Shown here one piece after another: positions 3,671 to 49,048 of a stretch of 64,000 bases of DNA; positions within the stretch are counted from its first letter, which is position 1, and each line of letters starts with the position of its first letter. Source of the stretch: Candidatus Magasanikiibacteriota bacterium (GTDB lineage: Bacteria; Patescibacteriota; Patescibacteriia; Magasanikbacterales; UBA922); NCBI GenBank assembly GCA_042218065.1, contig JBDGRL010000012.1, positions 4,244 through 68,243 of the forward strand, in the 5' to 3' direction. The position numbers and the translations under genes were made by a program. The notes under the pieces are model-generated. The model worked only from the letters and a program-made list of their open reading frames with translations, did not search any database and was not told the origin of the DNA.

Positions 3671-5284
3671 TTATATTTCATCCGGCTCGTCAACTTCTGC
3701 TTCAATGTCAGTCCAACTTAAGTATTTTCGCTTTGCGCTAGATTGTAGCTGTTGTAGCTCTTTCGTTTTTAGTAGATACGAGATTAGGATATAAACCATC
3801 AGTCCCAATCCTCCTAAAATTAGACCATAGAAGAAAGTGAGAATCATACCTTCAAAGTTTGTTAATCGATTAAGATAAGGTTCAGCTAGATACATTGTCA
3901 GCCACATGAAGATGCTAGCAGGTGTGATTTTAGCTATGAGCTTGAGGAGTTTGCTCTCGCGTATTGATCCTAATTTGTTTCTCAACAAAAGCCAAAGCAG
4001 TGCGAACTGGCATATCATAGAAATCGAAAACGCCATCGCTAGACCGCTGATCCCAAAGCTGTCCTTTAGCAACAGTGCGGCCACCAAATTTATAATCATT
4101 CCTATTGTTGCAACTACAAATGGACCCCATGTATCCTTCAGTGCAAAAAAGCCTCGGATAAGCACAGGGATCAAACTCTGAGCAAAGAGAGATACTGAAA
4201 AGAAGGCAAGTGCTGATGCGGTCTGCTTTATAGACTGCCGGTCAAATTTACCGGAACCAAAAACCACTTCTACTATCTCGACTCTAAGCAGAATAAAGAG
4301 AATTGTTATTGGTATGATCAAAAATAATACCTTTCGGATGGTGCTGACTAGAAGCTCAGTCATATCTTCCGCTTTTTCTTTTGCTATCAGCTCGGAGAGA
4401 GCAGGAAAAGAGGCAAGAGCAAATGAGTAACCTATAATTCCTACAGGAAAGTACTGTATATTTTTTGCAAAATTAAAGATAGTTAGGCTTCCTGCAGCCA
4501 AGGTTGAGGCGAGGATTGTCATAATCAAAAAATTCATCTGATTTGCTGCCAGACCCAGAGTTCTGGGGATCATCATTTTACCTATTTTTTTCAGATGCGG
4601 ATTGTGCCAGGGAAGAATAAATTTATACTCAAAACCGAGATGAAACAAAGTGGGAACTTGTATTGCTAGATGCAGGAAAGCGCCTAAAATTACACCCCAA
4701 GCAAGACCAATTTCTCCAAAGTGAGGAACGAAAAATAATGCTCCTGCGATAATCCCTAGGTTATACACTACAGGAGTAAAGGAGTAAACTATGAATGATT
4801 TAAATGACTGCAGTACACCGCTGGCGATGCTACTAAGCCCCAACAAGATTGGGCTTAAAAACATCACTCGGGTCATTTTTATTGTTAGATCTAATTTTTT
4901 TCCGCTATAACCCGGAACCACCCACTGCATTAATTGTGGGGTGAAGATGAATAAAATAGTACATATGACAATGAGTGATATTCCCAATATATTCAACACC
5001 CCGTTAGTGACCTTCCAGGCCTCGTCCGTATCATCTTCTAGAAGCTCTTTAAACACCGGGATAAAACCGGCAGATAAAGCTCCGACGACCAGCATATTAT
5101 ATACCAAATCCGGCACACGAAAGGCTGCAAAATAAGCATCCAAAGTATTCCCAGCTCCGAACTGGTGGGCAAAAATTTTATCCCGCGCTAAACCGATAAA
5201 ACGGGAGACTAAAGAAGCTGCCCCTACTGCAATAGCGGCTCCGGTAGTGCTTTTAATTTTACTTTTAATCAGTTTCTTTATCAT
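3671..5284 (-). CDS. murJ: Lipid II flippase MurJ/MviN
   Basis: 537-aa polytopic protein. The N-terminus SRFIGLARDKIFAHQFGAGNTLDAYFAAFRVPD is typical of MurJ. Confidence 0.9.
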   Translation of the reverse strand: MIKKLIKSKIKSTTGAAIAVGAASLVSRFIGLARDKIFAHQFGAGNTLDAYFAAFRVPDLVYNMLVVGALSAGFIPVFKELLEDDTDEAWKVTNGVLNILGISLIVICTILFIFTPQLMQWVVPGYSGKKLDLTIKMTRVMFLSPILLGLSSIASGVLQSFKSFIVYSFTPVVYNLGIIAGALFFVPHFGEIGLAWGVILGAFLHLAIQVPTLFHLGFEYKFILPWHNPHLKKIGKMMIPRTLGLAANQMNFLIMTILASTLAAGSLTIFNFAKNIQYFPVGIIGYSFALASFPALSELIAKEKAEDMTELLVSTIRKVLFLIIPITILFILLRVEIVEVVFGSGKFDRQSIKQTASALAFFSVSLFAQSLIPVLIRGFFALKDTWGPFVVATIGMIINLVAALLLKDSFGISGLAMAFSISMICQFALLWLLLRNKLGSIRESKLLKLIAKITPASIFMWLTMYLAEPYLNRLTNFEGMILTFFYGLILGGLGLMVYILISYLLKTKELQQLQSSAKRKYLSWTDIEAEVDEPDEI

Positions 5285-5964
5285 TTATTCGGGATAACTA
5301 TATCCAGAGAACCAATCTCTGTGCCGGGTTGTTCCGGGTTGTTTTCCAGATACAGACTTCCCACTATCCCCCCCTTACTAAAGCCGATTTGTTTAATATC
5401 TTTTTTGTCAGCTGTGCTATTTACCGTAAAGCCGTTCTTTTTTAGCTCGGTAGTATAAAAATCTTTTACGAAGTCTGGCTCGGCTGATATATTTCTCCAT
5501 TCAATCACGATCTTGTTTTGCCTTTTTTTGGTCGGCTGATTCATTAAATAGAGAAACTCCGAAAATATATTCTTTTTCTCGGTCGAATCTTTTGCGTTCA
5601 GGTAGTTTTTAAGCTCAACCGGGGAGTCTTCTTGTAGTATCACGTGAGCAGAGACCAGGAAGAATTTAGGCACTATATCTGAGACTTTCGCTAGAAAGGT
5701 TTTGTTATTCTGAGAAGCCACTGCTATTCTGCTGATGCTGTCTTGTTCATATACCGGTACTCCTTCGGGTAGGCTTTTTGGTACTTTTTTTACCTCTTTT
5801 AGGTGTGGTGAAGAAGCAAATTTAATCAACCCCAAAAAGCTAATAATCAGTAGAATAATAAAGAAACAACCCTTACCGCAGCTTCTCTTTAGGCAAGAAC
5901 CTTTCTCTTCTAGCTCTTGTACTGCTGGCCCTTTTACCTGAACATCATTGTCTTCCTTGCGCAT
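5281..5964 (-). CDS. Hypothetical membrane-anchored protein
   Basis: Track ORF 5281..5982 begins with TTG, and the first ATG (MRKEDND...) is at 5964. It has one TM segment (CFFIILLIISFLGLI). There is a 4-nt ATGA overlap with the murJ start. Confidence 0.7.
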   Translation of the reverse strand: MRKEDNDVQVKGPAVQELEEKGSCLKRSCGKGCFFIILLIISFLGLIKFASSPHLKEVKKVPKSLPEGVPVYEQDSISRIAVASQNNKTFLAKVSDIVPKFFLVSAHVILQEDSPVELKNYLNAKDSTEKKNIFSEFLYLMNQPTKKRQNKIVIEWRNISAEPDFVKDFYTTELKKNGFTVNSTADKKDIKQIGFSKGGIVGSLYLENNPEQPGTEIGSLDIVIPNK

Positions 5965-24093: not shown

Positions 24094-24180
24094 TATATTT
24101 GTCCAATGATTATAATTTGAGCTATCTTTAATTCGACAATTGCATTTTAAAAATAGTATAAAAATTGTAAAATAAAAGTA

Positions 24181-24202
24181 CCCAGCAGCTTTAGCCACTG
24201 GG
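24181..24202 (-). terminator. Putative terminator of the G+C-rich minus-strand gene
   Basis: The minus strand reads CCCAGtggctaaagctgCTGGG followed by TACTTTTATTTT. It lies 50 nt after the stop at 24252. Confidence 0.45.
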
Positions 24203-24251
24203 TGTGGTGTGACCGTGCCCGTAGAGTCGGCGGGGGTAGGTCGGAATACCC

Positions 24252-24617
24252 TCAATCCTTGAGGTAGACGTCGACGATGATCGGTGGATTTTTGTCATCG
24301 TTGACTACGGTGATTTCGGCTCGGAACCGCTCGTCTTCGAGAGCGAGTTTGTTGAGATCCGTTTCGACCACTTCTTTCATTTCGGCGAGAGCTTCCTCTA
24401 GTGAACTGTAACTTTTATTTGTGGACCATTTCAACCTTTGATTGTAAATCTGTGCGTGTCCCTGCAACCGGGCGCAGTTTGCCGTGTTGGCGATCAGCTG
24501 CCCGTATTGTGAACTGAAATTGTGCGGTACGCACGAATTCGTTGCAAGCACTGTCGGCTTCTTTTTCAGAGCGAGTGTTTGGGCGATCTGGAGCTGTCCT
24601 TGGTCTTCGAACGACAT
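24252..24617 (-). CDS. Hypothetical 121-aa protein encoded in G+C-rich island 1
   Basis: The ATG at 24617 (MSFEDQGQLQ...) is preceded by GAGG plus 6 nt. By hand count, 24 of the first 40 third codon positions are G/C, against AT-rich third positions in neighbouring genes. I recognise no family. Confidence 0.65.
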   Translation of the reverse strand: MSFEDQGQLQIAQTLALKKKPTVLATNSCVPHNFSSQYGQLIANTANCARLQGHAQIYNQRLKWSTNKSYSSLEEALAEMKEVVETDLNKLALEDERFRAEITVVNDDKNPPIIVDVYLKD

Positions 24618-24684
24618 GGTGTACCTCGATTGCTTTGGGAGCGAAAAGAGCGAAACAATTCCCCAGCAACGGGAAATCAAGTGC

Positions 24685-24711
24685 AACTTATCATATATAT
24701 ATTGATGTCAA
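24685..24711 (-). promoter_or_regulatory. Candidate host-type promoter driving the island-1 gene
   Basis: On the minus strand: TTGACA (24711-24706), a 15-nt spacer ending TGa, then TAAGTT (24690-24685). This is the same extended -10 sequence as at 18089-18097. The spacer is shorter than optimal. Confidence 0.35.
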
Positions 24712-38296: not shown

Positions 38297-38701
38297 ATGC
38301 AAGAATGTGATTTTTGTAAAATTGTAGATGGAGAAATCCCTAACCATACAGTGTATGAAGATAACCACTCGCTAGCATTTTTGGATATAAACCCTCAGGC
38401 AAAAGGTCATACGATAGTGATTCCCAAAGTGCATGCAGAAACTTATTTTGATTTGAATGAAGAGCTTGTAAAAGAACTATTTAAGGCAGTGCAAAGAGCT
38501 ATGGAGAATATAGATTCTAAGATTAACCCAGACGGGTACAATGTAGGCTGGAACCAAGGAAAAGCTGGTGGCCAGGTTGTACCGCACCTGCATGTGCACA
38601 TTATGCCCCGATGGGAAGACGACGGCGGAGGCAATATGCACTCTATAGTAGACAGCCCAGGTGATATGAAAGTGGAGGAGGTAGCTGAATTGTTTAATTA
38701 A
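38297..38701 (+). CDS. HIT-family nucleotide hydrolase/transferase
   Basis: 134 aa. It has CDFCKIV...GHTIVIPKVH and the histidine triad HLHVHIMP. Confidence 0.92.
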   Translation: MQECDFCKIVDGEIPNHTVYEDNHSLAFLDINPQAKGHTIVIPKVHAETYFDLNEELVKELFKAVQRAMENIDSKINPDGYNVGWNQGKAGGQVVPHLHVHIMPRWEDDGGGNMHSIVDSPGDMKVEEVAELFN

Positions 38702-38709
38702 TAAATGGT

Positions 38710-39309
38710 ATGGCGAATAGGCCCGAGAAGATATCAGAAGAAGAAATACACGAAAACCCCTGGTGGAGCTACAAGCACGATAAATATAAATTGCCAAGCG
38801 GAGAAGAGGGTGACTATTATTATGCTGATACAGAAGGTGGAGTAATGGTAGTGCCGGTACTCCCAGACGGGAAACTGGGACTGATTCGGCAGTACAGATA
38901 CCTTGCAGACAAAAAGGGGATAGAGTTCCCCGGAGGTCAAATACTGGAAAATAAGAGCCCTGAAGAGTCAGCCAGGGTTGAGCTGAGAGAAGAAACGGGG
39001 TTTATAGCTGATGGATTTACTCAGGTAGCTACATTTGAAGTAGCTCCCGGCTTTGCCAAAGACAAAGCACACTTATTTTTAGCTCAAGTTGAAGAGCAAA
39101 AACAGCAGCAACTAGACAGCTCTGAAAATATAGAGGTTTTATCGAGGAGAGTAGATGAATTTCAGGAAATGATTACACGTGGGGATATTTTCCACGGTAT
39201 GACTCTCGCCGCTTGGAGCTTGGTGTCTCCATATTTTGAACGTCTACATGAAGAACCGAGAGAAAAATCGCCAAAAGTAAAGCAGATTCTAGATAAAATA
39301 TTTCGTTAA
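38710..39309 (+). CDS. NUDIX hydrolase
   Basis: 199 aa. The Nudix box reads GGQILENKSPEESARVELREETGF. Confidence 0.9.
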   Translation: MANRPEKISEEEIHENPWWSYKHDKYKLPSGEEGDYYYADTEGGVMVVPVLPDGKLGLIRQYRYLADKKGIEFPGGQILENKSPEESARVELREETGFIADGFTQVATFEVAPGFAKDKAHLFLAQVEEQKQQQLDSSENIEVLSRRVDEFQEMITRGDIFHGMTLAAWSLVSPYFERLHEEPREKSPKVKQILDKIFR

Positions 39310-39866
39310 TGACAGCTAAATTTAATAAAAAGTCTGAAGAGGTCGTAGCTAAAAATCCTTATTGGGTTTATAAGCATGATAAATATGAGCTACCTAATGG
39401 AGAGGATAGTGACTATTATTATGCCGATATTAATGATTTTGTAATGATTGTGCCTGTCTTAGATAGTGAAACCTTAGTTGCTATTAAAGAGTTTAGGTAT
39501 TTACTTCAGGATTATAGCATAGAACTGCCGGGTGGTTATTGTGAGGATGACAAAACTATAAAAGATTCAGCTAAGAGCGAGCTTAAAGAAGAAACAGGAT
39601 ATGGTGTAGATAAGTTGGAGAAAGTTGGTAGTTTCGGGTCTTCGCCGGGGGTTATGAAAAACACCACCCATGTTTTTTGGGCTTCTGTATCAAAAAAAGA
39701 TAAACAAAAACTTGATGAGTCTGAGGAGATAGAAGTGCTTGAGATGTCAATAAAAAAATTTCAAAGGTTAATAAAAGAGGATAAGGTCAAACATGGAGAA
39801 ACATTGGGGGCATGGACACTAGTTTCTGCAAAAATACAAAGGGAAGTTGATAGTTTTAATATATAA
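39309..39866 (+). CDS. NUDIX hydrolase (tandem paralog)
   Basis: 185 aa. The Nudix box reads GGYCEDDKTIKDSAKSELKEETGY. It shares the N-terminal block NP(W/Y)W.YKHDKY.LP.GE..DYYYAD with the upstream gene. Confidence 0.9.
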   Translation: MTAKFNKKSEEVVAKNPYWVYKHDKYELPNGEDSDYYYADINDFVMIVPVLDSETLVAIKEFRYLLQDYSIELPGGYCEDDKTIKDSAKSELKEETGYGVDKLEKVGSFGSSPGVMKNTTHVFWASVSKKDKQKLDESEEIEVLEMSIKKFQRLIKEDKVKHGETLGAWTLVSAKIQREVDSFNI

Positions 39867-39868
39867 AC

Positions 39869-40879
39869 ATGAATTTACTAGTAACTGGAGGTGCTGGTTT
39901 TATCGGTAGTAACTTCATCCATTATTGGCTGGATGAAAACCCTGAGGATGAGGTTGTAAACCTTGATCTTCTTACTTATGCCGGTAATTTAGAGAATTTA
40001 AAAGATGTGGAGAACAACCCAAACTACTCTTTTATTAAGGGTGATATAACTAACAAAGAGTTAGTGGAGGATGTCATCAGAGAGCATGAAATCGACACTA
40101 TCGTACATTTTGCAGCTGAAAGTCATGTAGACCGATCCATAATGAATTGTGAGGATTTTGTGCACACAAATGTAGTTGGCACTTACTCTTTGTTAGAGCA
40201 AGCTAGAGATTTTAACCTAAATTTTCATCATGTCTCTACTGATGAGGTCTTTGGAGAGCTGGATCCGGAAGACCCGCCTTTTGATGAAAATACCGACTAT
40301 GACCCGCAAAGCCCGTATGCGGCCTCAAAAGCAGGGTCTGATCATCTGGTTCGTTCTTATCATAATACTTACGATTTAGAGGTGACTATCTCCAACTGTT
40401 CTAATAACTATGGACCATACCAATTTCCGGAAAAAATTATTCCTTTGTTTATTTCGAATCTAATGACTGATGAAAAGGTTCCGGTCTATGGTGATGGAAA
40501 ACAGCGTAGAGACTGGATACATGTAGATGATCACAGCCGAGGAGTTGAAAAGATTATAAAAGATGGGGAGTCGGGAGAAACATATTGTTTGGGAGGTGAC
40601 AGTGAAATGACAAACTTAGAGCTTACTAAAACTTTGCTGGAGTTGATGGACAAGGATGAGTCATATATAAAACACGTAAAAGACAGGCCCGGCCACGATA
40701 GAAGGTATGCTATAGATTTCTCTAAGGCTAAAGAGAAGCTCGGTTGGGAGCCACAAATTGAGTTTAGACAAGGACTTAAAAATACCATTGAGTGGTACGA
40801 ACAAAACCAGGAGTGGGTGAAAAGATGTAAAAGCGGCGAGTACAGAGATTACTATAAGCAGCAATATAAAAAAAGATAA
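39869..40879 (+). CDS. rfbB: dTDP-glucose 4,6-dehydratase
   Basis: 336 aa. Motifs are VTGGAGFIGSNF, HFAAESHVDRS, YAASKAGSD and the RmlB-typical C-terminus. Confidence 0.93.
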   Translation: MNLLVTGGAGFIGSNFIHYWLDENPEDEVVNLDLLTYAGNLENLKDVENNPNYSFIKGDITNKELVEDVIREHEIDTIVHFAAESHVDRSIMNCEDFVHTNVVGTYSLLEQARDFNLNFHHVSTDEVFGELDPEDPPFDENTDYDPQSPYAASKAGSDHLVRSYHNTYDLEVTISNCSNNYGPYQFPEKIIPLFISNLMTDEKVPVYGDGKQRRDWIHVDDHSRGVEKIIKDGESGETYCLGGDSEMTNLELTKTLLELMDKDESYIKHVKDRPGHDRRYAIDFSKAKEKLGWEPQIEFRQGLKNTIEWYEQNQEWVKRCKSGEYRDYYKQQYKKR

Positions 40880-40888
40880 TTAAATTTT

Positions 40889-41740
40889 ATGAAAATATTA
40901 ATTATCGGTGATGGCTTCATTGGGAACAGATGTGCAAATTCCTGGGAAGATGAAGCTGTAATTTCAGACAAAAGGATAAACTCTACTGAAGATATAGTTT
41001 CTGAGATTGAAAAATACAAACCTGATGCCGTACTCAATGCGGCTGGGCGTACAGGAAGACCAAATGTAGACTGGTGCGAAGATAATCAGCTGGAAACTAT
41101 TGTAGGAAATACAAAGCTTCCGATAATACTAGCAGAAGGGTGTCATGAAACTGATACTTATTTGCTTCATGTTGGGTCCGGTTGTATCTTCTATGGTGAG
41201 TCACATCATGAGGACGGAAAGTGGAGAGAAGATGATCACGGCAACCCTGAACCAGTATATTCACGTACAAAGTGGGCTGCCGATCTTACTCTTTCAACTC
41301 TGGAAAATGTAGGTATTGCTCGGATCAGGATGCCGATTGATCATGTTCCCAGCCCCAGAAATCTGATTGATAAGCTAATAAATTATGAGAAGGTAATAGA
41401 TGTAGAAAACAGTGTTACTATCGTAGAAGATATGATAGACGTTTTTTATCAACTATTAGAGCAAAAAGGAGAAGAGATTTATCATGTAACCAATCCCGGC
41501 ACTTTAAAGCACAGGGATATCATAAGCCACTATAAGGAATATGTAGACCCCGACCATGATAATGAGTGGATTACCGAAGAGGAGTTAGTTGAACTGGGAT
41601 TAGCCGATAAAGAGAGATCAAACAATTTTCTTCACTCTAGTAACTTAGAAGATTTGGGGATAGAAATGAGGCACATTCAAGATGCTATCGAAGATACGAT
41701 GAAAAAATATGCAGAATTAAAGAAGATAAATAATGACTAA
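40889..41740 (+). CDS. NRS/ER-like NDP-4-keto-6-deoxyglucose 3,5-epimerase/4-reductase (SDR fold)
   Basis: 283 aa. The blocks GRTGRPNVDWCEDNQLETI, RIRMPI...PRNLIDKLINYEKVIDVENSVTIVEDM and HVTNPGTLKHRDIISHYKEYVDP match, from memory, the plant NRS/ER and RHM C-terminal domain blocks. Confidence 0.7.
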   Translation: MKILIIGDGFIGNRCANSWEDEAVISDKRINSTEDIVSEIEKYKPDAVLNAAGRTGRPNVDWCEDNQLETIVGNTKLPIILAEGCHETDTYLLHVGSGCIFYGESHHEDGKWREDDHGNPEPVYSRTKWAADLTLSTLENVGIARIRMPIDHVPSPRNLIDKLINYEKVIDVENSVTIVEDMIDVFYQLLEQKGEEIYHVTNPGTLKHRDIISHYKEYVDPDHDNEWITEEELVELGLADKERSNNFLHSSNLEDLGIEMRHIQDAIEDTMKKYAELKKINND

Positions 41741-42476
41741 TACACATCAACCTAAAAGTTACGATGAATTCGATAAACGCGAATGGTGGAATGAAGCTGA
41801 AAAAGAAATATTTAAAAAAGTTACCGCCGAAAAATTACCGGAATCTGTTCCAGATGCTGTAGTCTGGATCGAAGGGGATGCAAGGGATAGAGTAGATAAG
41901 ACTATGGAAGTATTGGAATATTATAACCATAAACCAAAGCTAATTTTATCCGGTGGGCTAGAAGGAAACCCATATCGACCAGACTCTGATTTGCGACCCG
42001 ACGGTGGAAATATCCCTTCCTGGGAGATAAAAGAAGAATTCCTCGAGCGAGGAGTAGATAAGGAAAATATAATTTTAGAAGATGAATCTCGCAACGGTTT
42101 AGAGCAAGCAATCAATGATGTCGAGATTGCAAAGAAACGAGACTATGACAGCTTAGTCTTGGTTGCTTCAACTTGGCATCAGCCGAGGTTATTTTTGACT
42201 TTTGTCAATCAGCTACATGAACAAGATGCTTTGGATATTGAGCTGATTAACCAACCGGAGACCAGCTATCCACTAGATAGAAAAATTCCTGGCCGAGGAA
42301 AAGATACATTGGAGATGCTACAAGAGGATCTCTGGAAAATAACTGAATACAATGAAAATGGAACTGTTGCTAAAGCTGAAGTTGAGCTGGAGTATTTGGA
42401 AAGGTTTGAGAAAGAGTATGAAGAAGTCAGTGAAAAGATTGAAGAAATTGTCGAAGAAATTGAGTTAAAAAAGTAG
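41733..42476 (+). CDS. YdcF/DUF218-family protein
   Basis: 247 aa. The regions PKLILSGGLEG...EDESRNGLEQA...LVLVASTWHQPRLFLTF match the DUF218 pattern. The C-terminal tail is acidic. Confidence 0.65.
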   Translation: MTNTHQPKSYDEFDKREWWNEAEKEIFKKVTAEKLPESVPDAVVWIEGDARDRVDKTMEVLEYYNHKPKLILSGGLEGNPYRPDSDLRPDGGNIPSWEIKEEFLERGVDKENIILEDESRNGLEQAINDVEIAKKRDYDSLVLVASTWHQPRLFLTFVNQLHEQDALDIELINQPETSYPLDRKIPGRGKDTLEMLQEDLWKITEYNENGTVAKAEVELEYLERFEKEYEEVSEKIEEIVEEIELKK

Positions 42477-42477
42477 T

Positions 42478-44010
42478 ATGTCACCCCCAAACCGAGGAGA
42501 TAATAATAGAGATCCTGGAAAATTAGGCGATGAAAATTCTGTAAATAACCCAGAACAAGAACCTGGAGAAGAGTTTTTAGACCCTAATCAAAAACCTGAA
42601 AGATATTATGGTGAGCCTGGTAGTTTGTCTGAAAAGTTAGAGTTAATAGATAAAGTTATTCTAAGAAGAGATGCTGATTTGTTAGTTGAGGAAGACTTAA
42701 TGACTGATGATCAATTGATGGAGTATTTAGTATTGGTTGAGGGTGAGCAGTCAGAGCAGATAGTTCGTATGATTAGAAGTTTTAACGTTTTAGTTGAAGA
42801 CTTTACTTCGCAAGATGAAGATCCTTTTTCAGTTGAGGGAATTAGAAAAATAGCTAATAGAACTGGCTTGGATCGTCCTAGTTTTTTTACCAAGATAGCC
42901 AAAGCATATTTTCACATGGGCCAATTTGATCCCTCTTTTTTTCTTACAAGTGAAAGATTGACAAAAGCGGTACTTGATCTAAAAGAGGGAGAAATTTCTC
43001 CGATAGAAAAAGCTGATGCGGTTGAAACCTTAGGTTCTATTCAGGATAAATTTGGAGATCAAGCCAGTGCTTATAAACTAAAAGAAAGCGGATTACAAGT
43101 TTTAAATCATTCAGATATGCAAGATGTAAATCAAGCATGGTTAAAAGCAAAGTGTCTCCACGGAATGGCTGACTATCAAATAGATGATGAGAGAGTTCCT
43201 AATGAAAAGATAGAAGATAGATTTGAAGAGGTAGAACAGATCCTCCGTGATATTCAAGATGAAGCTCATGTAGCTAGAACAAAACTAGATATAGCAAAGT
43301 TTCATATTCAAAATGAGGATTATAAAAAAGCTCACCAATATGCAAGCCAGGCTTATGAAGAATTACACGAAACTGGTTATATTAGGAAATTGCCGGACGC
43401 AGCTGAGATTATGAGGGATAGTCAAGAACAACTTAGTTCGGATGCACAAATTGTAAGAAGAATAGAACAAATCCAAACGCAAGACAGAGAAGCAATACAA
43501 CCTAAAAGAGAAGATTTAGTTGAACTTAAAGAAACAGAAGAAAAGTTAAAACCAGCTAGAGTTTTATTAAAACTCCCAAGCTCTTCTGGAGAAACTGTGT
43601 ATTTTGTTAAAAAAGATTCTGATGGAAGTTATGAGCTGCCAGAAATTGAAGGTTTGGAGAGTGGGGAGGGTTTTTCTAAGTTTGAAATGTTAAAAAATTT
43701 AGAAAGAATGCTAGCAGAGAATTTATCTGAGTCAGAAGATGCAGAATTAGAAAAAATTACATCTAATCATCCAGTCATTCCTACAGGTGAGGAAAAAAGA
43801 AGTGAAGATCGAGAGGTGCAATTATATAAAATAGATCTAACATCAGGACCACAAGATAAAATACCAGAGGTGAAACCTGGTGAGCTTGAAAAAAAAGAAA
43901 AATTTTGCTATGTTGCTATGAAATATGAAGAATTAAAGAGTAATCAAGAAAATTTTGATTCTGAATCGCAAAAATTGATTGAAGGAGAAATTGAATATCA
44001 AGGAGAGTAA
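42478..44010 (+). CDS. Hypothetical acidic protein
   Basis: 510 aa with host-like AT-rich codon usage. I recognise no motif. Confidence 0.7.
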   Translation: MSPPNRGDNNRDPGKLGDENSVNNPEQEPGEEFLDPNQKPERYYGEPGSLSEKLELIDKVILRRDADLLVEEDLMTDDQLMEYLVLVEGEQSEQIVRMIRSFNVLVEDFTSQDEDPFSVEGIRKIANRTGLDRPSFFTKIAKAYFHMGQFDPSFFLTSERLTKAVLDLKEGEISPIEKADAVETLGSIQDKFGDQASAYKLKESGLQVLNHSDMQDVNQAWLKAKCLHGMADYQIDDERVPNEKIEDRFEEVEQILRDIQDEAHVARTKLDIAKFHIQNEDYKKAHQYASQAYEELHETGYIRKLPDAAEIMRDSQEQLSSDAQIVRRIEQIQTQDREAIQPKREDLVELKETEEKLKPARVLLKLPSSSGETVYFVKKDSDGSYELPEIEGLESGEGFSKFEMLKNLERMLAENLSESEDAELEKITSNHPVIPTGEEKRSEDREVQLYKIDLTSGPQDKIPEVKPGELEKKEKFCYVAMKYEELKSNQENFDSESQKLIEGEIEYQGE

Positions 44011-44037
44011 AAATATTACGACTAAATCGAAACAACT

Positions 44038-44084
44038 GCAGGCATAGCTAGCTGGATTTTTTTAATTTAGCTAGGTGTGCCTGC
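44038..44084. repeat. 19-bp imperfect inverted repeat at the AT-to-GC composition boundary
   Basis: GCAGGCATAGCTAGCTGGA (44038-44056) pairs with 44066-84 across a 9-nt T-rich loop. Of 19 positions, 14 are Watson-Crick pairs, 4 are G-U pairs and 1 is a mismatch. Confidence 0.7.
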
Positions 44085-44176
44085 CTCGCTGAGGAGGACA
44101 CCCGCCAAAACTTCCCGCTGGGAATAAGTGGCGTCGTTATAGTCCGTAAACCTTTCCGCGAATGCGGAGGTTTGTG

Positions 44177-44791
44177 ATGAGTAACGAGCAACGGAGAGTC
44201 GTCTCGCTGGACGAAGTCCGCGAGACGCTCGCCGACGAATTTGGGGAAAAGGTCTTGATTGACCTGATTCCACAGATCGACGAGTCCCAGTGGGTCCTCG
44301 ACCTCTGGGCCGAGCTCGATGGGGCACAACCTCATGATGAGTGGGTCGCTGGTCGTCGAGATCGGCGATTCTTCGATGTGGGGGTTCGTAACCCCTATCT
44401 CGATCCCCCTCAAGGAGCGCCATGGGGGCAACTCGAGATCAGGGAGGAGCCGACGATTCAGCCGGACCAGTCCGGCAACCGGATCGTCGGGTACGTCCTC
44501 ATCGAGTCGCTTCGGCTCGAATACGGATCGGCCGTGCGTGTCACGGCCAGCTCCGTCTCGAACGATGAGGCGGAGATCTGCGTCGACGACCAGCCGGCGA
44601 TCGAGTCGGAGGACGAGGTCCACGGGATGTTTCGCACAAACGGCCCCCGAATCAACGGGGACGTGTTGGTGATCGAACGCCCGGTCGAATCCGCTGAGGG
44701 CGATGGGTGGGGAACCCCCAATGCCCTCATCAAGCAGGCCGAAGATCAAAAAGTCGGTCAAGGTCTGCGTCAAGCGGGCCTCGTCGAGTAA
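44177..44791 (+). CDS. Hypothetical 204-aa acidic protein encoded in G+C-rich island 2
   Basis: GGAGG (44166-44170) lies 6 nt before the ATG at 44177 (MSNEQRRVVSLDEV...). In the first 40 codons, 30/40 third positions are G/C against 11/40 second positions (hand count), a coding signature for this frame. I recognise no family. Confidence 0.7.
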   Translation: MSNEQRRVVSLDEVRETLADEFGEKVLIDLIPQIDESQWVLDLWAELDGAQPHDEWVAGRRDRRFFDVGVRNPYLDPPQGAPWGQLEIREEPTIQPDQSGNRIVGYVLIESLRLEYGSAVRVTASSVSNDEAEICVDDQPAIESEDEVHGMFRTNGPRINGDVLVIERPVESAEGDGWGTPNALIKQAEDQKVGQGLRQAGLVE

Positions 44792-44803
44792 TTGAACACC
44801 AAC

Positions 44804-44857
44804 ACCCCGAGTCGCGAACCCACGGACTTCACGGCCCGTGCTGAAGCGGCTCGGGGT
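44804..44857 (+). ncRNA. G+C-rich 12-bp stem enclosing an inner hairpin, directly after the island-2 stop codon
   Basis: ACCCCGAGTCGC (44804-44815) pairs with GCGGCTCGGGGT (44846-44857), 11 Watson-Crick pairs plus 1 G-U. The inner hairpin is CACGG (44821-25) with CCGTG (44836-40). Confidence 0.5.
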
Positions 44858-44860
44858 TGA

Positions 44861-44963
44861 GCCCCAGGAAAGGTAAGCCTGAGAATGGCGGAGCCGAATT
44901 TCCGAGAGGAGGGAGCCTAGCGTGTTAACGTGAGGCTAGCAGGTTCGAATCCTGCCCGGGGCA
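44861..44963 (+). ncRNA. Non-canonical tRNA-like element (T-arm plus acceptor-like helix; no anticodon arm identified)
   Basis: The T-arm GCAGG-TTCGAAT-CCTGC (44939-44955) is perfect. The 3' strand CCGGGGC (44956-62) pairs with GCCCCAG (44861-67) in 6 of 7 positions. The discriminator is A44963 and no CCA is encoded. An extra arm, AGCCT..AGGCT (44914-44937), is present. At 103 nt it is too long and irregular for a standard cloverleaf. Confidence 0.4.
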
Positions 44964-45001
44964 TTTTGCACGATTGTTCGATCTTTGTAGAATTTGGGGG
45001 A

Positions 45002-45066
45002 GCCTAGAACAGTTTGTTCTAGGCAATACAAAAGCTCACCAAATCTGGTGAGTTTTTGTATTTTTT
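45002..45066 (+). terminator. Tandem hairpins; the second is a strong rho-independent terminator
   Basis: Hairpin 1 is GCCTAGAACA/TGTTCTAGGC (45002-45024). Hairpin 2 is a 14-bp stem TACAAAAGCTCACC/GGTGAGTTTTTGTA (45027-45060) followed by TTTTTT. Confidence 0.75.
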
Positions 45067-45091
45067 GCTATAGTTTGAAAAAATAATTTTT

Positions 45092-46312
45092 GTGAAGGAA
45101 AAATTAGCTCGCAACCCAAAACTACTATTCTGGATTAATGCTTTGAAAAATGTGAAAGTTTTAAGCATTGTAATTTCTTTATTTTATCTTCACCGTGGTT
45201 TGAGTTTATCACAGATTTTTTATTTATCGATCGTCTGGGCGGTGACAAATTTACTATTTGAAATCCCTTCTAGCTACATGGCCGATAAGTGGGGCAGGAA
45301 GAAAACTTTATTTGTCGGTGCAGTCTCTTTTTTATTCTACTGGATTGTTTTGTTGGTTGGTGCTAGCTTTTGGGTATTTGCTTTTGCTATTTTTTTGTAT
45401 GCCTTTTCTTTTGCTTGTTTTTCTGGAACAGATGATGCTTTACTTTATGATACCAAAAAAGAGTTAGGCAAAGAGGCAGAAACTTTAGGTTCATTTGGTA
45501 AATATTACTCAGCCAAAAGGATTTTCAAAATTGCTGCTCCAATTTTAGGAGCAGTTATTGCTAAGGATTTACTTGAATGGCAATTTCAGCTAATCATCAG
45601 TATAGATATATTTGCTTCTCTGTTGGCTGTTATTATGACATTGTTTTTAGTTGAGCCCACTCACTACAAGGAAGTAAAACAAGAAGAGGCGGATATATTG
45701 TTAGATGCCTGGAATTTACTCAGCTCGAATAAAAATCTACTCAAAGCCATCTTAAATAAAACTCTGATTTTTATAGCTGGTTTTATAACTTTCCGCTATT
45801 ATCAAAAATTATTTGTCGATCTTGGTATGGCAGTAATAGCGATCGGTATCGGTTGGTCTATGTTTCAGGTAATAATGTTTTGGGGTAATCAAAAAATTAC
45901 TGAAGTCTTCAAAAATTATCCTTTGCCTCAAAGGATAGATTTCCTAAACTATATTTTTGCTGGTGTAATGAGTAGTTTTGTCGCTATTTATTTTATCGCT
46001 TCGGAGAGGTTTTATCTTCTATTTATTTTGTTTGTAGTGGCTCATATAGCCGAGACGCTTAGATATACTTTATTCTCCGAGATGTTCAACAAAAACTTCA
46101 AATCTTTCAATCGTTCGACAGCTTTATCTTTGTCAAATTTTCTTAAAAGTGTGCTAGATATTCCGTTGATATTTTTTGCCGGCTGGTTAGTTAGCCTCGA
46201 TATTATCTACCCTTATGTATTTGCTGCTATTTTAGCTGTTGTAGTTAGTTTGGTTGTTAGTCTCCACGGGTTAGGTTTATATGTTCAGAAAAAGCCAGTT
46301 AAAGCTTCCTAA
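45092..46312 (+). CDS. MFS transporter
   Basis: 406 aa with about 11-12 TM segments and the MFS loop motif MADKWGRKKT. It has a GTG start. Confidence 0.85.
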   Translation: MKEKLARNPKLLFWINALKNVKVLSIVISLFYLHRGLSLSQIFYLSIVWAVTNLLFEIPSSYMADKWGRKKTLFVGAVSFLFYWIVLLVGASFWVFAFAIFLYAFSFACFSGTDDALLYDTKKELGKEAETLGSFGKYYSAKRIFKIAAPILGAVIAKDLLEWQFQLIISIDIFASLLAVIMTLFLVEPTHYKEVKQEEADILLDAWNLLSSNKNLLKAILNKTLIFIAGFITFRYYQKLFVDLGMAVIAIGIGWSMFQVIMFWGNQKITEVFKNYPLPQRIDFLNYIFAGVMSSFVAIYFIASERFYLLFILFVVAHIAETLRYTLFSEMFNKNFKSFNRSTALSLSNFLKSVLDIPLIFFAGWLVSLDIIYPYVFAAILAVVVSLVVSLHGLGLYVQKKPVKAS

Positions 46313-48196: not shown

Positions 48197-49048
48197 ATGA
48201 ATCTATCAGTAATTACCGTAACTTGGAACAATGAAGATGAAATAGCCGAGCAGATACGCTCGGTAAGATCTGCATGTAATGATATCGAATTCGAGCAGAT
48301 TATAGTAGATAATGACTCACCAGATGATACCGTAAAAGTTATTGAAAAAAATTTTCCTGAGGTGAAATTGATAGCTAATAAGGAAAATAAAGGCTTTGGT
48401 ACAGCAAATAATCAAGGAGTTGAACAAGCAGAAGGTGAATTTTTGTTGTTTTTAAATCCGGATATGAAACTAAAAGAGGGAAGCTTAGATAAGATAGTAA
48501 AATGGATGAGAGACAATGAAGATGTAGGAATTGCTTGTCCAAAGCTTATTAACGAAGACGGTAGTTTCAACGAGCATGCCAGTCCACGCAGTTTCCCTAC
48601 AGTTCTAGAGCAGCTAGCGATTATTTTCAAGATCCCTCACATTTTTCCATCTGTATTAGATAGATATTTAATGACAGATTTTGATCCAAGTAAGGAGCGA
48701 GAAGTCGATAGTGTCCGCGGATCTTTTATGCTGATGCGAAGAGAAATTGTAGAAGAACTAGGCTGGGCTTTCGATCCAAGATACTTCATCTGGTATGAAG
48801 ATGTAGATATCTGTCGTGAAGTAAAAAGCCTAGGCTACAAAGTAATGTATACTCCGGTAATTGAAGCAGTTGATTATGTCGGTAAGAGCTTCGGCCAGAG
48901 AAGAGGTCTATGGAAGCAAAAGAACTTTACTGAAAGTATGCTAAAATATTTCAAAAAATGGGAGCCATTCTATAAATGGATCTGGATCGCTATGGCTCGT
49001 CCGATTGGAATTTTTATGGTTTGGTTGCAAGAAAAAATTATAAATTAA
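48197..49048 (+). CDS. GT2 family glycosyltransferase
   Basis: 283 aa. Motifs are LSVITVTWNN, IVDNDSPDDT, NKGFGTANNQG, FLNPDM and YEDVD. Confidence 0.9.
   Translation: MNLSVITVTWNNEDEIAEQIRSVRSACNDIEFEQIIVDNDSPDDTVKVIEKNFPEVKLIANKENKGFGTANNQGVEQAEGEFLLFLNPDMKLKEGSLDKIVKWMRDNEDVGIACPKLINEDGSFNEHASPRSFPTVLEQLAIIFKIPHIFPSVLDRYLMTDFDPSKEREVDSVRGSFMLMRREIVEELGWAFDPRYFIWYEDVDICREVKSLGYKVMYTPVIEAVDYVGKSFGQRRGLWKQKNFTESMLKYFKKWEPFYKWIWIAMARPIGIFMVWLQEKIIN

Follow-up and report, generated by a model that had tools for sequence, protein, structure and literature searches.

The strongest compositional anomaly in the 64,000-nucleotide stretch of DNA analysed here (the window), which comes from a metagenome-assembled genome (MAG) of Candidatus Magasanikbacteria, surrounds a single gene, hereafter gene X, annotated at NCBI as hypothetical protein ABEJ24_01465 on a 70.5-kb contig. 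Gene X lies in a G+C-rich island with the following features (ORF, open reading frame; SD, Shine-Dalgarno sequence).

44038-44084, plus strand: imperfect hairpin with 21-nt arms, an inverted repeat after the gene for a 510-residue protein and the left edge of the G+C-rich stretch
44051-44935, minus strand: antisense stop-free frame of 295 codons (listed ORF 44048-44773, 241 residues)
44085-44147, plus strand: leader of about 60 nt, G+C-rich at about 0.53, that contains neither an ORF nor a recognised promoter
44148-44173, plus strand: leader hairpin, core TTTCCGC-GAAT-GCGGAGG at 44153-44170, its 3' arm holding the SD GGAGG at 44166-44170
44177-44791, plus strand: gene X, encoding a 204-residue acidic protein of a family of about 190 residues with a predicted, distantly Nudix-like fold
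44804-44857, plus strand: strong hairpin directly past the stop codon, with 12-nt arms and an inner stem
44861-44964, plus strand: tRNA-like element with an acceptor-type stem, a T arm at 44939-44955 and a discriminator A, without CCA
45002-45024, plus strand: hairpin with a perfect 10-bp stem, lying between tRNA-like element and terminator
45025-45072, plus strand: 17-bp stem and T-run resembling an intrinsic terminator, the right edge of the island and the probable 3' end of the transcription unit

Segments of 200 nt exceed 0.5 G+C across 44017-45058 (0.61 versus 0.36), the strongest G+C outlier of the window. The gene X ORF has a G+C content of 0.611, against a mean of 0.361 for the other 615-nt segments of the window (standard deviation 0.039, maximum 0.468; z = 6.5). 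An earlier reading made from the letters alone (the sequence-only reading) had singled out the same ORF as a compositional outlier, and its hand counts were reproduced exactly: 38 of 60 nucleotides are G or C at 44521-44580 and 15 of 60 at 45121-45180, and from the ATG at 44177 30 of 40 third positions but 11 of 40 second positions are G or C. Over the whole ORF the G+C contents of the first, second and third codon positions are 0.72, 0.40 and 0.72. Among the 46 other long ORFs of the window the third-position value (GC3), about 0.73 in X, has a median of 0.29 and does not exceed 0.41. Codon and amino-acid choice are shifted together: CTC supplies 10 of 16 leucine codons (3% in host genes) and GTC 15 of 20 valine codons, the ratio Arg/(Arg+Lys) is 0.84 (0.32 in the host), and Gly, Ala, Arg and Pro make up 0.29 of residues (0.19 in the host). 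Several other frames are open at the island, as had also been seen, including the 241-residue ORF on the minus strand. The island reaches further than had been proposed, taking in about 170 nt of structured non-coding sequence past the stop codon. On its left edge, the hairpin at 44038-44084 has no T-run and is missing from the list of terminators, and so is not a typical intrinsic terminator. An independent assembly of run SRR28304479 (a Logan contig) is 100% identical over 43177-44968 and bridges the left junction, between the A+T-rich gene for the 510-residue protein and the island. Of the two junctions at which the sequence-only reading had allowed for a chimera, the left is therefore spanned by identical sequence; the right lies beyond the end of this contig.

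Two further compositional features were recorded. Within 44085-44965 the tetranucleotides TCGA and GATC occur 16 and 10 times (3.1 expected for each), an excess that is probably a side effect of NTC-GAN codon pairs and that adds to self-complementarity. The sole other stretch of the window to reach 0.55 G+C in 200-nt segments is 24155-24689, where a minus-strand ORF (24252-24617; 121 residues, 0.50 G+C, GC3 0.60) has its own terminator; a word-indexed protein search with its product returned the query alone, and its RNA shows no structure excess (z -0.3). This is island 1 of the sequence-only reading, which had paired it with the X island as a second insertion; it may be another gene of this G+C-rich kind or an orphan.

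The gene X protein belongs to a conserved family. A word-indexed search returned only the protein itself, and an exhaustive HMMER search of 1.84 billion representatives recovered full-length homologues of 192-201 residues, the best with 45% identity (E = 1e-27). A profile built from the homologues collected 45 proteins of about 160-230 residues (the start codons of some relatives were set by eye), with conserved motifs along the full length (R-x-D, EEP, RIVG-H, LELKPSS-SKGEL, NPQRI and STDGRS-x-ALAKAGL). The conserved family and a confident structure model support the earlier view that this is real coding sequence. Where the homologues from the profile search carry taxon labels, these are Uhrbacteria, Falkowbacteria, Magasanikbacteria or "Patescibacteria group", with one exception, a locus (L006, OZ246416.1) deposited as 'uncultured Gammaproteobacteria bacterium'. 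This is an 886-kb chromosome of 0.42 G+C on which the usual neighbourhood of X is present and the proteins of the locus are 80-95% identical to those of Patescibacteria relatives, so that it looks mislabelled. In another locus (L005 5001-5648, a Falkowbacteria MAG) the C-terminal third of X is in a shifted frame, with …RERRLPGCGGHDPGR… replacing …DFPEEEG…STDGRSL…, either a sequencing frameshift or a decaying copy.

The compositional contrast recurs across this family. The DNA comparison covered 19 distinct loci (given L numbers here), 17 of them with neighbouring ORFs, and in 14 of these 17 GC3 of X lies above that of every neighbouring ORF. GC3 of X and the highest value among its neighbours are 0.84 and 0.41 in L001, 0.84 and 0.48 in L006, 0.84 and 0.51 in L007, 0.85 and 0.58 in L008, and 0.61 and 0.40 in L004, while in L023 X has 0.85 and its single neighbour 0.44. 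The excess also persists in G+C-rich hosts: X has 0.93 in L018 (0.59 G+C; neighbours median 0.70, maximum 0.75), 0.92 in L020 (neighbours median 0.68) and 0.77 in L021 (neighbours median 0.56). In hosts at 0.35-0.41 G+C the whole-gene G+C content of X lies 0.21-0.29 above the rest of the locus. The enrichment spans all codon positions and amino-acid choice, and both G-ending and C-ending codons are increased, a combination that differs from ordinary translational codon bias in A+T-rich bacteria. An excess that extends to G+C-rich hosts cannot be put down to a donor signature, and a neutral foreign signature would have been erased in lineages whose proteins are just 25-45% identical. High G+C content is thus a trait of the X family and not of a donor organism.

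The rate and sharpness of this divergence can be followed in a group of closer relatives (clade A: L001, L005-L008 and L012), with the orthologous flanking genes as comparison. Protein identity within clade A is 80-95% for the flanks and 57-76% for X, with similar third-position divergence. The median synonymous rate (dS) is 0.69 for X and 1.0-1.4 for the flanks by the NG86 method, which is biased under skewed codon usage; the median nonsynonymous rate (dN) is 0.25 for X and 0.04-0.19 for the flanks, giving dN/dS of 0.39 and 0.04-0.18. X has thus diverged together with its flanks, without recent spread, as a fast-evolving protein with constrained synonymous sites. The persistence of the G+C richness over saturating divergence, together with the reduced dS, suggests that it is actively maintained. 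The divergence of the flanks is mosaic between the same genome pairs (L007 and L008 differ at 0.16 of third positions in RmlD and at 0.51 in the nucleoside triphosphate (NTP) transferase gene), from which it follows that the locus recombines, and yet the recombining flanks keep GC3 at 0.33-0.47. The clade A promoter (TTGACA, 17 nt, TAATCT-type) and 5' untranslated region (UTR) are conserved and rich in A+T, codons 2-6 already show a GC3 of about 0.7, and the G+C shift ends at the terminator.

The fold of the protein offers a tentative link to function. AlphaFold2 with a 47-sequence alignment gave a mean predicted local distance difference test score (pLDDT) of 88.7 and a predicted template modelling score (pTM) of 0.79 for a mostly beta model with one N-terminal and two C-terminal helices. 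Foldseek on this model gave weak matches of Nudix type (E of about 8e-3, template modelling (TM) scores 0.36-0.39). The Nudix box GX5EX7REUXEEXGU is absent, and the conserved EEP motif sits in a predicted strand and not in a catalytic helix. Pfam, including NUDIX (PF00293), gave no match at E<=1; nothing meaningful came from NCBIfam, PADLOC and PHROGs scans or from PDB sequence searches, whether started from the single protein or from the profile, so that the failure of the sequence-only reading to recognise a family is shared by these collections. The fold is predicted to be distantly Nudix-like, and the protein is not filed here as a Nudix hydrolase. Two genuine NUDIX proteins are encoded 5 kb upstream, and paralogy of X with them was considered and rejected, as hhalign detected no profile similarity (probability <1%); no paralogue of X occurs within the window. 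The isoelectric point (pI) of the protein is 4.33, and since cytoplasmic proteins of the neighbourhood are similarly acidic (pI 4.5-4.8) the acidity is no foreign trait.

The genes around X in the window run in the order HIT, NUDIX, NUDIX, RmlB, RmlD, DUF218, 510-residue protein, X, major facilitator superfamily (MFS) transporter, two genes and glycosyltransferase family 2 (GT2). The parts with counterparts beside X in relatives are the following.

38297-42476, plus strand: upstream conserved neighbourhood, with HIT (38297-38701), two NUDIX genes, an RmlB-type dTDP-glucose 4,6-dehydratase (39869-40879), an RmlD-type reductase (40889-41740) and DUF218 (41733-42476)
48197-49048, plus strand: GT2 gene, 61-62% identical to the orthologues that follow X in L004 and L023

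Orthologues of the upstream block adjoin X in L001, L004-L008, L020 and other loci, and DUF218 of the window is 57% identical to that of L004. The order is HIT-RmlB-FdtA-(63 residues)-X-RmlD-NTP transferase in L001, RmlB-FdtA-RmlD-DUF218-X-GT2 in L004, X-(149 residues)-RmlC-RmlB-...-RmlD in L003 and X-FdtA-like-GT2 in L023, and homologues stand beside dTDP-sugar genes in at least 10 Patescibacteria-type loci. By gene order, X of the window occupies the usual site of its family, a dTDP-sugar neighbourhood. Together with the distant fold match, this context suggests that the product of gene X probably binds or processes a nucleotide-sugar. The very acidic 510-residue protein encoded between DUF218 and X (42478-44010) has host-type composition, matches no Pfam, NCBIfam or PADLOC family and has no counterpart in the loci of relatives; its gene was apparently inserted into the conserved neighbourhood in this lineage only.

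Adjacent G+C-rich genes were seen in some relatives. In clade A a small basic ORF of about 70-75 residues (ORF Y; L005 about 5650-5950, L007 about 5610-5830, L008 about 5590-5800; for example MARLRKKRRPVGDLSTIQREKMEVARLIRL...) directly follows X and is also G+C-rich, with no PHROGs match. L001 and L006 retain only its last codons (gcggccTGA), which points to deletion. In L023 the FdtA-like cupin gene beside X (906-1382) is likewise G+C-rich (about 0.57-0.69 in 100-nt segments) and is followed by a GT2 gene at about 0.41, so that the G+C-rich state can cover two adjacent genes, which appear to have separate promoters.

The transcript itself shows a second set of peculiarities, beginning with its leader. 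The sequence-only reading had placed GGAGG 6 nt before the ATG and inside a hairpin at 44153-44170, and both were found where it put them. The 53-nt leader of the window folds at -14.7 kcal/mol, a longer fold extends the hairpin to about 44148-44173, and the SD-containing hairpin forms in every folding context tried. The relative in L023, with 40% protein identity, has identical arms (TTCCGC/GCGGAG), extended to pair its purine SD tract, and its 53-nt leader folds at -19.2 kcal/mol. In L003 the leader carries a compensated variant (TTCCGTC/GACGGAG) with one extra compensated pair, and clade A conserves another stem (GAAGCC-N5-GGCTTC), which lies a short way upstream of an extended SD that stays free. 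A 5' stem beside the SD is thus a predicted feature of the whole family, with sequestration of the SD proper predicted for a subclade consisting of the window and L023. No Rfam match was found for the leader among riboswitch or thermometer families.

Secondly, the coding region is predicted to be unusually rich in base pairs. Its minimum free energy, a predicted value, is -310 kcal/mol, compared with -262 +/- 7 kcal/mol for synonymous shuffles that keep protein and codon usage (z -6.4 and -7.1 in two runs). The coding region of L004 gave z -5.5 to -5.9 in the same comparison and four host-gene controls z -1.1 to +0.2. In the window the sense strand of X folds 33 kcal/mol better than the antisense strand, and perfect or near-perfect complementary segments pair over long distances (for example 44348-44359 with 44583-44594). 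Taken as a whole, 44140-45062 reaches z -11.6 against dinucleotide shuffles, and the transcript of the window is predicted to be exceptionally structured, with the SD inside a stem. Obelisks are highly structured RNAs of about 1 kb with an ORF of about 200 residues; an Obelisk-like RNA was considered and rejected (Oblin-1 itself was not compared), the island being DNA-encoded at a syntenic chromosomal site and its predicted fold not rod-shaped. In L004 a 430-nt G+C-rich stretch without ORFs between X and GT2 (4580-5010; z -5.8) has no counterpart in Rfam and is a candidate for an as yet undescribed structured RNA.

Finally, the region past the stop codon combines strong structure (z -3.6 for 44792-44975) with a partial likeness to tRNA. 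The tRNA-like element starts 70 nt after the stop codon of X and is closed by an acceptor stem (GCCCC(A)GG at 44861-44868 with CCGGGGC) on a T arm (GCAGG-TTCGAAT-CCTGC, 44939-44955) that matches the consensus perfectly. The 71-nt interior has no D arm and no anticodon arm. The Rfam tRNA model finds a local match to the T arm alone (13.6 bits, against a gathering score of 29), and neither ARAGORN in default mode nor Rfam at its gathering threshold calls the element, which is not a canonical tRNA; nor does ARAGORN in default mode find an intact tRNA anywhere in the 64 kb of the window. Rfam applied to the window and three relatives gave nothing at gathering thresholds; at E<=10 the island gave chance-level matches and the bare T arm, with no match to the transfer-messenger RNA (tmRNA) model. 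A 25-mer comprising the T arm, the 3' strand of the acceptor stem and the discriminator coincides exactly with the 3' end of a genuine phage tRNA-Arg(TCT), carried on an unrelated viral contig. The element could be what is left of a tRNA or of an attachment site, a minihelix with a function in directing end processing, or the product of chance plus drift. Two ARAGORN candidates were rejected, namely a tRNA-Ser(gga) with a 582-nt intron (intron mode), whose 5' half falls inside conserved coding sequence, and a permuted tmRNA with the atypical tag AEPNFREEGA, which is below threshold, lacks G3-U70 and has the wrong size. The relatives yielded no such element; the one exception is an odd call in L016 (1711-1787), where ARAGORN places a tRNA-Asp, its anticodon ATC abnormal, some 190 nt past X and with a TTGACA promoter of its own.

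As a whole, these observations are probably best explained by a resident, family-typical transcription unit of Candidatus Magasanikbacteria whose G+C content is maintained, with selection at the RNA level as the most likely force. The X family, whose members are cytoplasmic proteins, accompanies genes for dTDP-6-deoxyhexose (rhamnose-type) sugars, and its protein may act on nucleotide-sugars. Selection for a heavily base-paired, nuclease-resistant and tightly controlled mRNA would keep X G+C-rich, and in the window the parts of such a transcript would be the SD-sequestering hairpin, the over-paired coding region, the 3' hairpin, the tRNA-like minihelix domain and the terminator. On the predicted folds, RNA-level selection appears to be the most likely maintaining force and fits best in the subclade of the window.

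Several observations weigh against this explanation, in whole or in part. L010, L019 and L022 show little or no G+C excess. The base-pairing excess is limited to the window and L004, other G+C-rich homologues having z +1.1 to -2.25; since these fold no better than their synonymous shuffles, selection for structure was rejected as an explanation for the whole family. Predicted pairs common to the window and L004 number 19 exact against a shuffle mean of 4.7 and maximum of 17, and a conserved RNA structure was not accepted for the two, the overlap being marginally above shuffles and concentrated where the protein is conserved. The low dS of X carries the codon-usage bias of its estimator. The G+C-rich stretch reaches beyond X in the window (leader and 3' region), in L004 (the 430 nt of non-coding sequence) and in L023 (the FdtA-like gene), which also fits a regional process or transfer of a block. 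The right edge of the island bears the tRNA-like fragment, and 4 nt past this, at 44968 and short of the right junction, the Logan contig breaks off; both are classic hints of integration, and the tRNA-like element is the main residual argument for a past integration event there.

A broader form of the RNA-level explanation is possible, if less likely than not, in which X is under strong nucleotide- or RNA-level selection across many Patescibacteria lineages, whatever the composition of the genome, and its transcript has a second role or special handling. The transcript might then be a structured mRNA that is dormant or lives extremely long, or it might both code and serve as a structured RNA; in the lineage of the window it would be processed at its 3' tRNA-like domain.

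We consider GC-biased gene conversion unlikely. A recombination hot spot in a surface-glycan locus would drive AT-to-GC fixation around X and speed up change of its protein, as is consistent with the raised G+C content at positions 1, 2 and 3, the shifted amino-acid usage, the raised dN, the G+C-rich sequence adjacent to X in the window, L004 and L023, and the recombination evident in the mosaic flanks. However, those recombining flanks have kept their low GC3, and in clade A the shift sets in only a few nucleotides from the start codon and stops at the terminator, more sharply than conversion tracts would. The sharp edges and the unaffected recombining neighbours thus disfavour plain gene conversion, which moreover does not predict the specific base-pairing excess of the window and L004.

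It is likewise doubtful that a block of about 1 kb (X, leader and 3' region) was transferred from a G+C-rich relative within the candidate phyla radiation (CPR), perhaps by way of an attachment sequence derived from a tRNA, and took the place of a resident copy or settled at a variable site in the glycan locus. Some family members do occur in genomes of 0.52-0.60 G+C, where UTRs would be G+C-rich too, and in the subclade of the window the G+C-rich block exceeds the coding region. The 25-nt identity to tRNA-Arg(TCT) and the break of an independent contig at that point would also fit, as would the rearranged neighbourhood relative to L004 (with the genes for the 510-residue protein and the MFS transporter inserted) and the mosaic flanks of clade A. 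Yet a search space of about 15 billion proteins yielded no donor closer than 45% identity, X has diverged further than its flanks in both clades, and GC3 of X tops the genome even in G+C-rich hosts, so that donor composition cannot explain the family pattern. No integrase is encoded among the neighbouring genes scanned, direct repeats are lacking at the flanks of the island, and the window contains no full tRNA.

Control of translation at the level of codons has little probability. Here codons rare in the host (CTC, GTC, GAG and CGN) would need particular tRNAs, as in the case of bldA and TTA in Streptomyces, and the downstream tRNA-like element might supply one of them. The skew of X towards CTC and GTC and the position of the element 70 nt past the stop are in keeping with this, and one alternative fold, read by eye and without a tool call, puts GAG in a 7-nt loop. 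But ARAGORN in default mode and Rfam (beyond the T arm) recognise no tRNA, the putative anticodon loop lacks U33, no such element was found in other family members, and in general C-ending codons share G34 tRNAs with the common T-ending ones.

The sequence-only reading had taken the gene for an unameliorated single-gene insertion from a high-G+C organism. A recent insertion of this kind from outside the CPR, for example from a haloarchaeon or a Salinibacter-like bacterium of the same brine, would account for the strong compositional contrast, the high-G+C codon usage, the acidic protein and the tRNA-like fragment at the right edge, but is very improbable. The gene belongs instead to a Patescibacteria family with a conserved neighbourhood and is a G+C outlier in most relatives. 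The homologues recovered by the exhaustive and the profile search are labelled as Patescibacteria or carry no label, L006 as the sole exception looking mislabelled, and the closest of them, at 45% identity, is itself in an A+T-rich locus of Patescibacteria type. The protein diverges more than its flanks, and synonymous divergence is not lowered in the way that a recent transfer would lower it. The neighbourhood is the usual one of the family, and the proteins of the host are no less acidic. A Pfam scan of 10 neighbouring proteins revealed neither integrase nor transposase, in agreement with the sequence-only reading, which had seen none; no flanking direct repeats of at least 12 nt were found around the island, and plasmid and phage collections contained no tblastn or blastn homologue.

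An overlapping antisense gene, in which the 241-residue ORF would encode a second protein and the need to keep its frame open would force G+C-rich codons, is just as hard to sustain. The frame opposite the sense codons is stop-free across the gene in 7 of 7 high-G+C members examined, and the codons TTA, CTA and TCA are absent from 13 of 13 high-G+C members (for the window, a naive third-base model gives P = 0.014); these are, however, generally the rarest codons of G+C-rich genes, and dodging three codons does not require a GC3 of 0.7-0.9. Antisense translations are 48-61% conserved, against 63-73% for the sense translations of the same genome pairs. About one third of codons with a conserved amino acid differ within clade A, mostly at the third position, which is position 1 of the antisense frame. 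The antisense ORF has no Pfam match, and the boundaries of the frame simply follow gene X. The open frame is judged to be a by-product of the missing TTA, CTA and TCA sense codons. A chimeric assembly, with high-G+C sequence of another organism stitched into the MAG contig, would suit the sharp compositional edges and the end of the Logan contig at 44968, but is extremely unlikely because the left junction is crossed at 100% identity and because the gene found is the one expected from synteny, with orthologous partners of both island flanks beside X in relatives.

Compositional outliers are routinely read as horizontal transfer, and X is a case in which that reading fails: a resident gene keeps a GC3 of 0.7-0.9 where other genes have 0.3-0.4, over a divergence that would erase any neutral signature. 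Full-text searching of the literature returned no description of this phenomenon. If RNA-level selection is the cause, X would offer a natural system for the tuning of mRNA structure and base content under minimal RNA-decay and regulatory machinery; if it is biased gene conversion, an unusually sharp bacterial example; and if it is nucleotide- or RNA-level selection across lineages, a rare, deeply conserved and gene-specific G+C set-point in bacteria. X also defines an uncharacterised Patescibacteria protein family linked to the synthesis of dTDP-sugars (cell-envelope glycans), to which the window adds a possible new tRNA-like 3' element.

Parts of the locus resemble known systems. The nearest systems to the protein, at structural scores in the distant range, are the Nudix-fold pyrophosphatases of NDP-sugars and ADP-ribose (NUDT5, E. 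coli YffH/NudK and M. tuberculosis ADPRase) and the dTDP-sugar 2,3-dehydratase EvaA, likewise of Nudix fold, but unlike the Nudix-fold enzymes it has neither the Nudix box nor a Pfam NUDIX match. The leader recalls those that sequester the SD and the 5' stem-loops that stabilise mRNAs, of which the ROSE and fourU RNA thermometers and the ompA 5' stem-loop are examples, in having a short hairpin at or including the SD near the probable 5' end; it differs in that the stem of the X family covers the SD only in the window and L023, and in having no Rfam match.

The tRNA-like domain of tmRNA, the 3' tRNA-like structures of plant viruses and the MALAT1 mascRNA likewise set an acceptor-type stem on a T arm that closes a non-tRNA interior. 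Like them, the element of the window stands at the 3' end of a coding transcript, whose end RNase P or RNase Z could set by cleavage. With its 104 nt the element is shorter than tmRNA (260-400 nt), and it has no G3-U70, no credible tag ORF and no pseudoknots.

Two further comparisons concern composition. Mouse Fxy and the correlation of recombination with GC3 in bacteria have been attributed to GC-biased gene conversion, and X resembles such G+C-rich, fast-evolving genes in its raised G+C content at all codon positions and its accelerated protein change, but its boundaries match the transcript or coding region and its recombining neighbours are unaffected. With horizontally acquired genomic islands the X island shares a sharp anomaly in G+C content and codon usage, here about 1 kb long, and a tRNA-related sequence at one edge. 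It differs from them in lacking an integrase, flanking direct repeats and donor-type homologues outside Patescibacteria, and in that distant relatives carry X in the same neighbourhood and show the anomaly as well, over saturating divergence.

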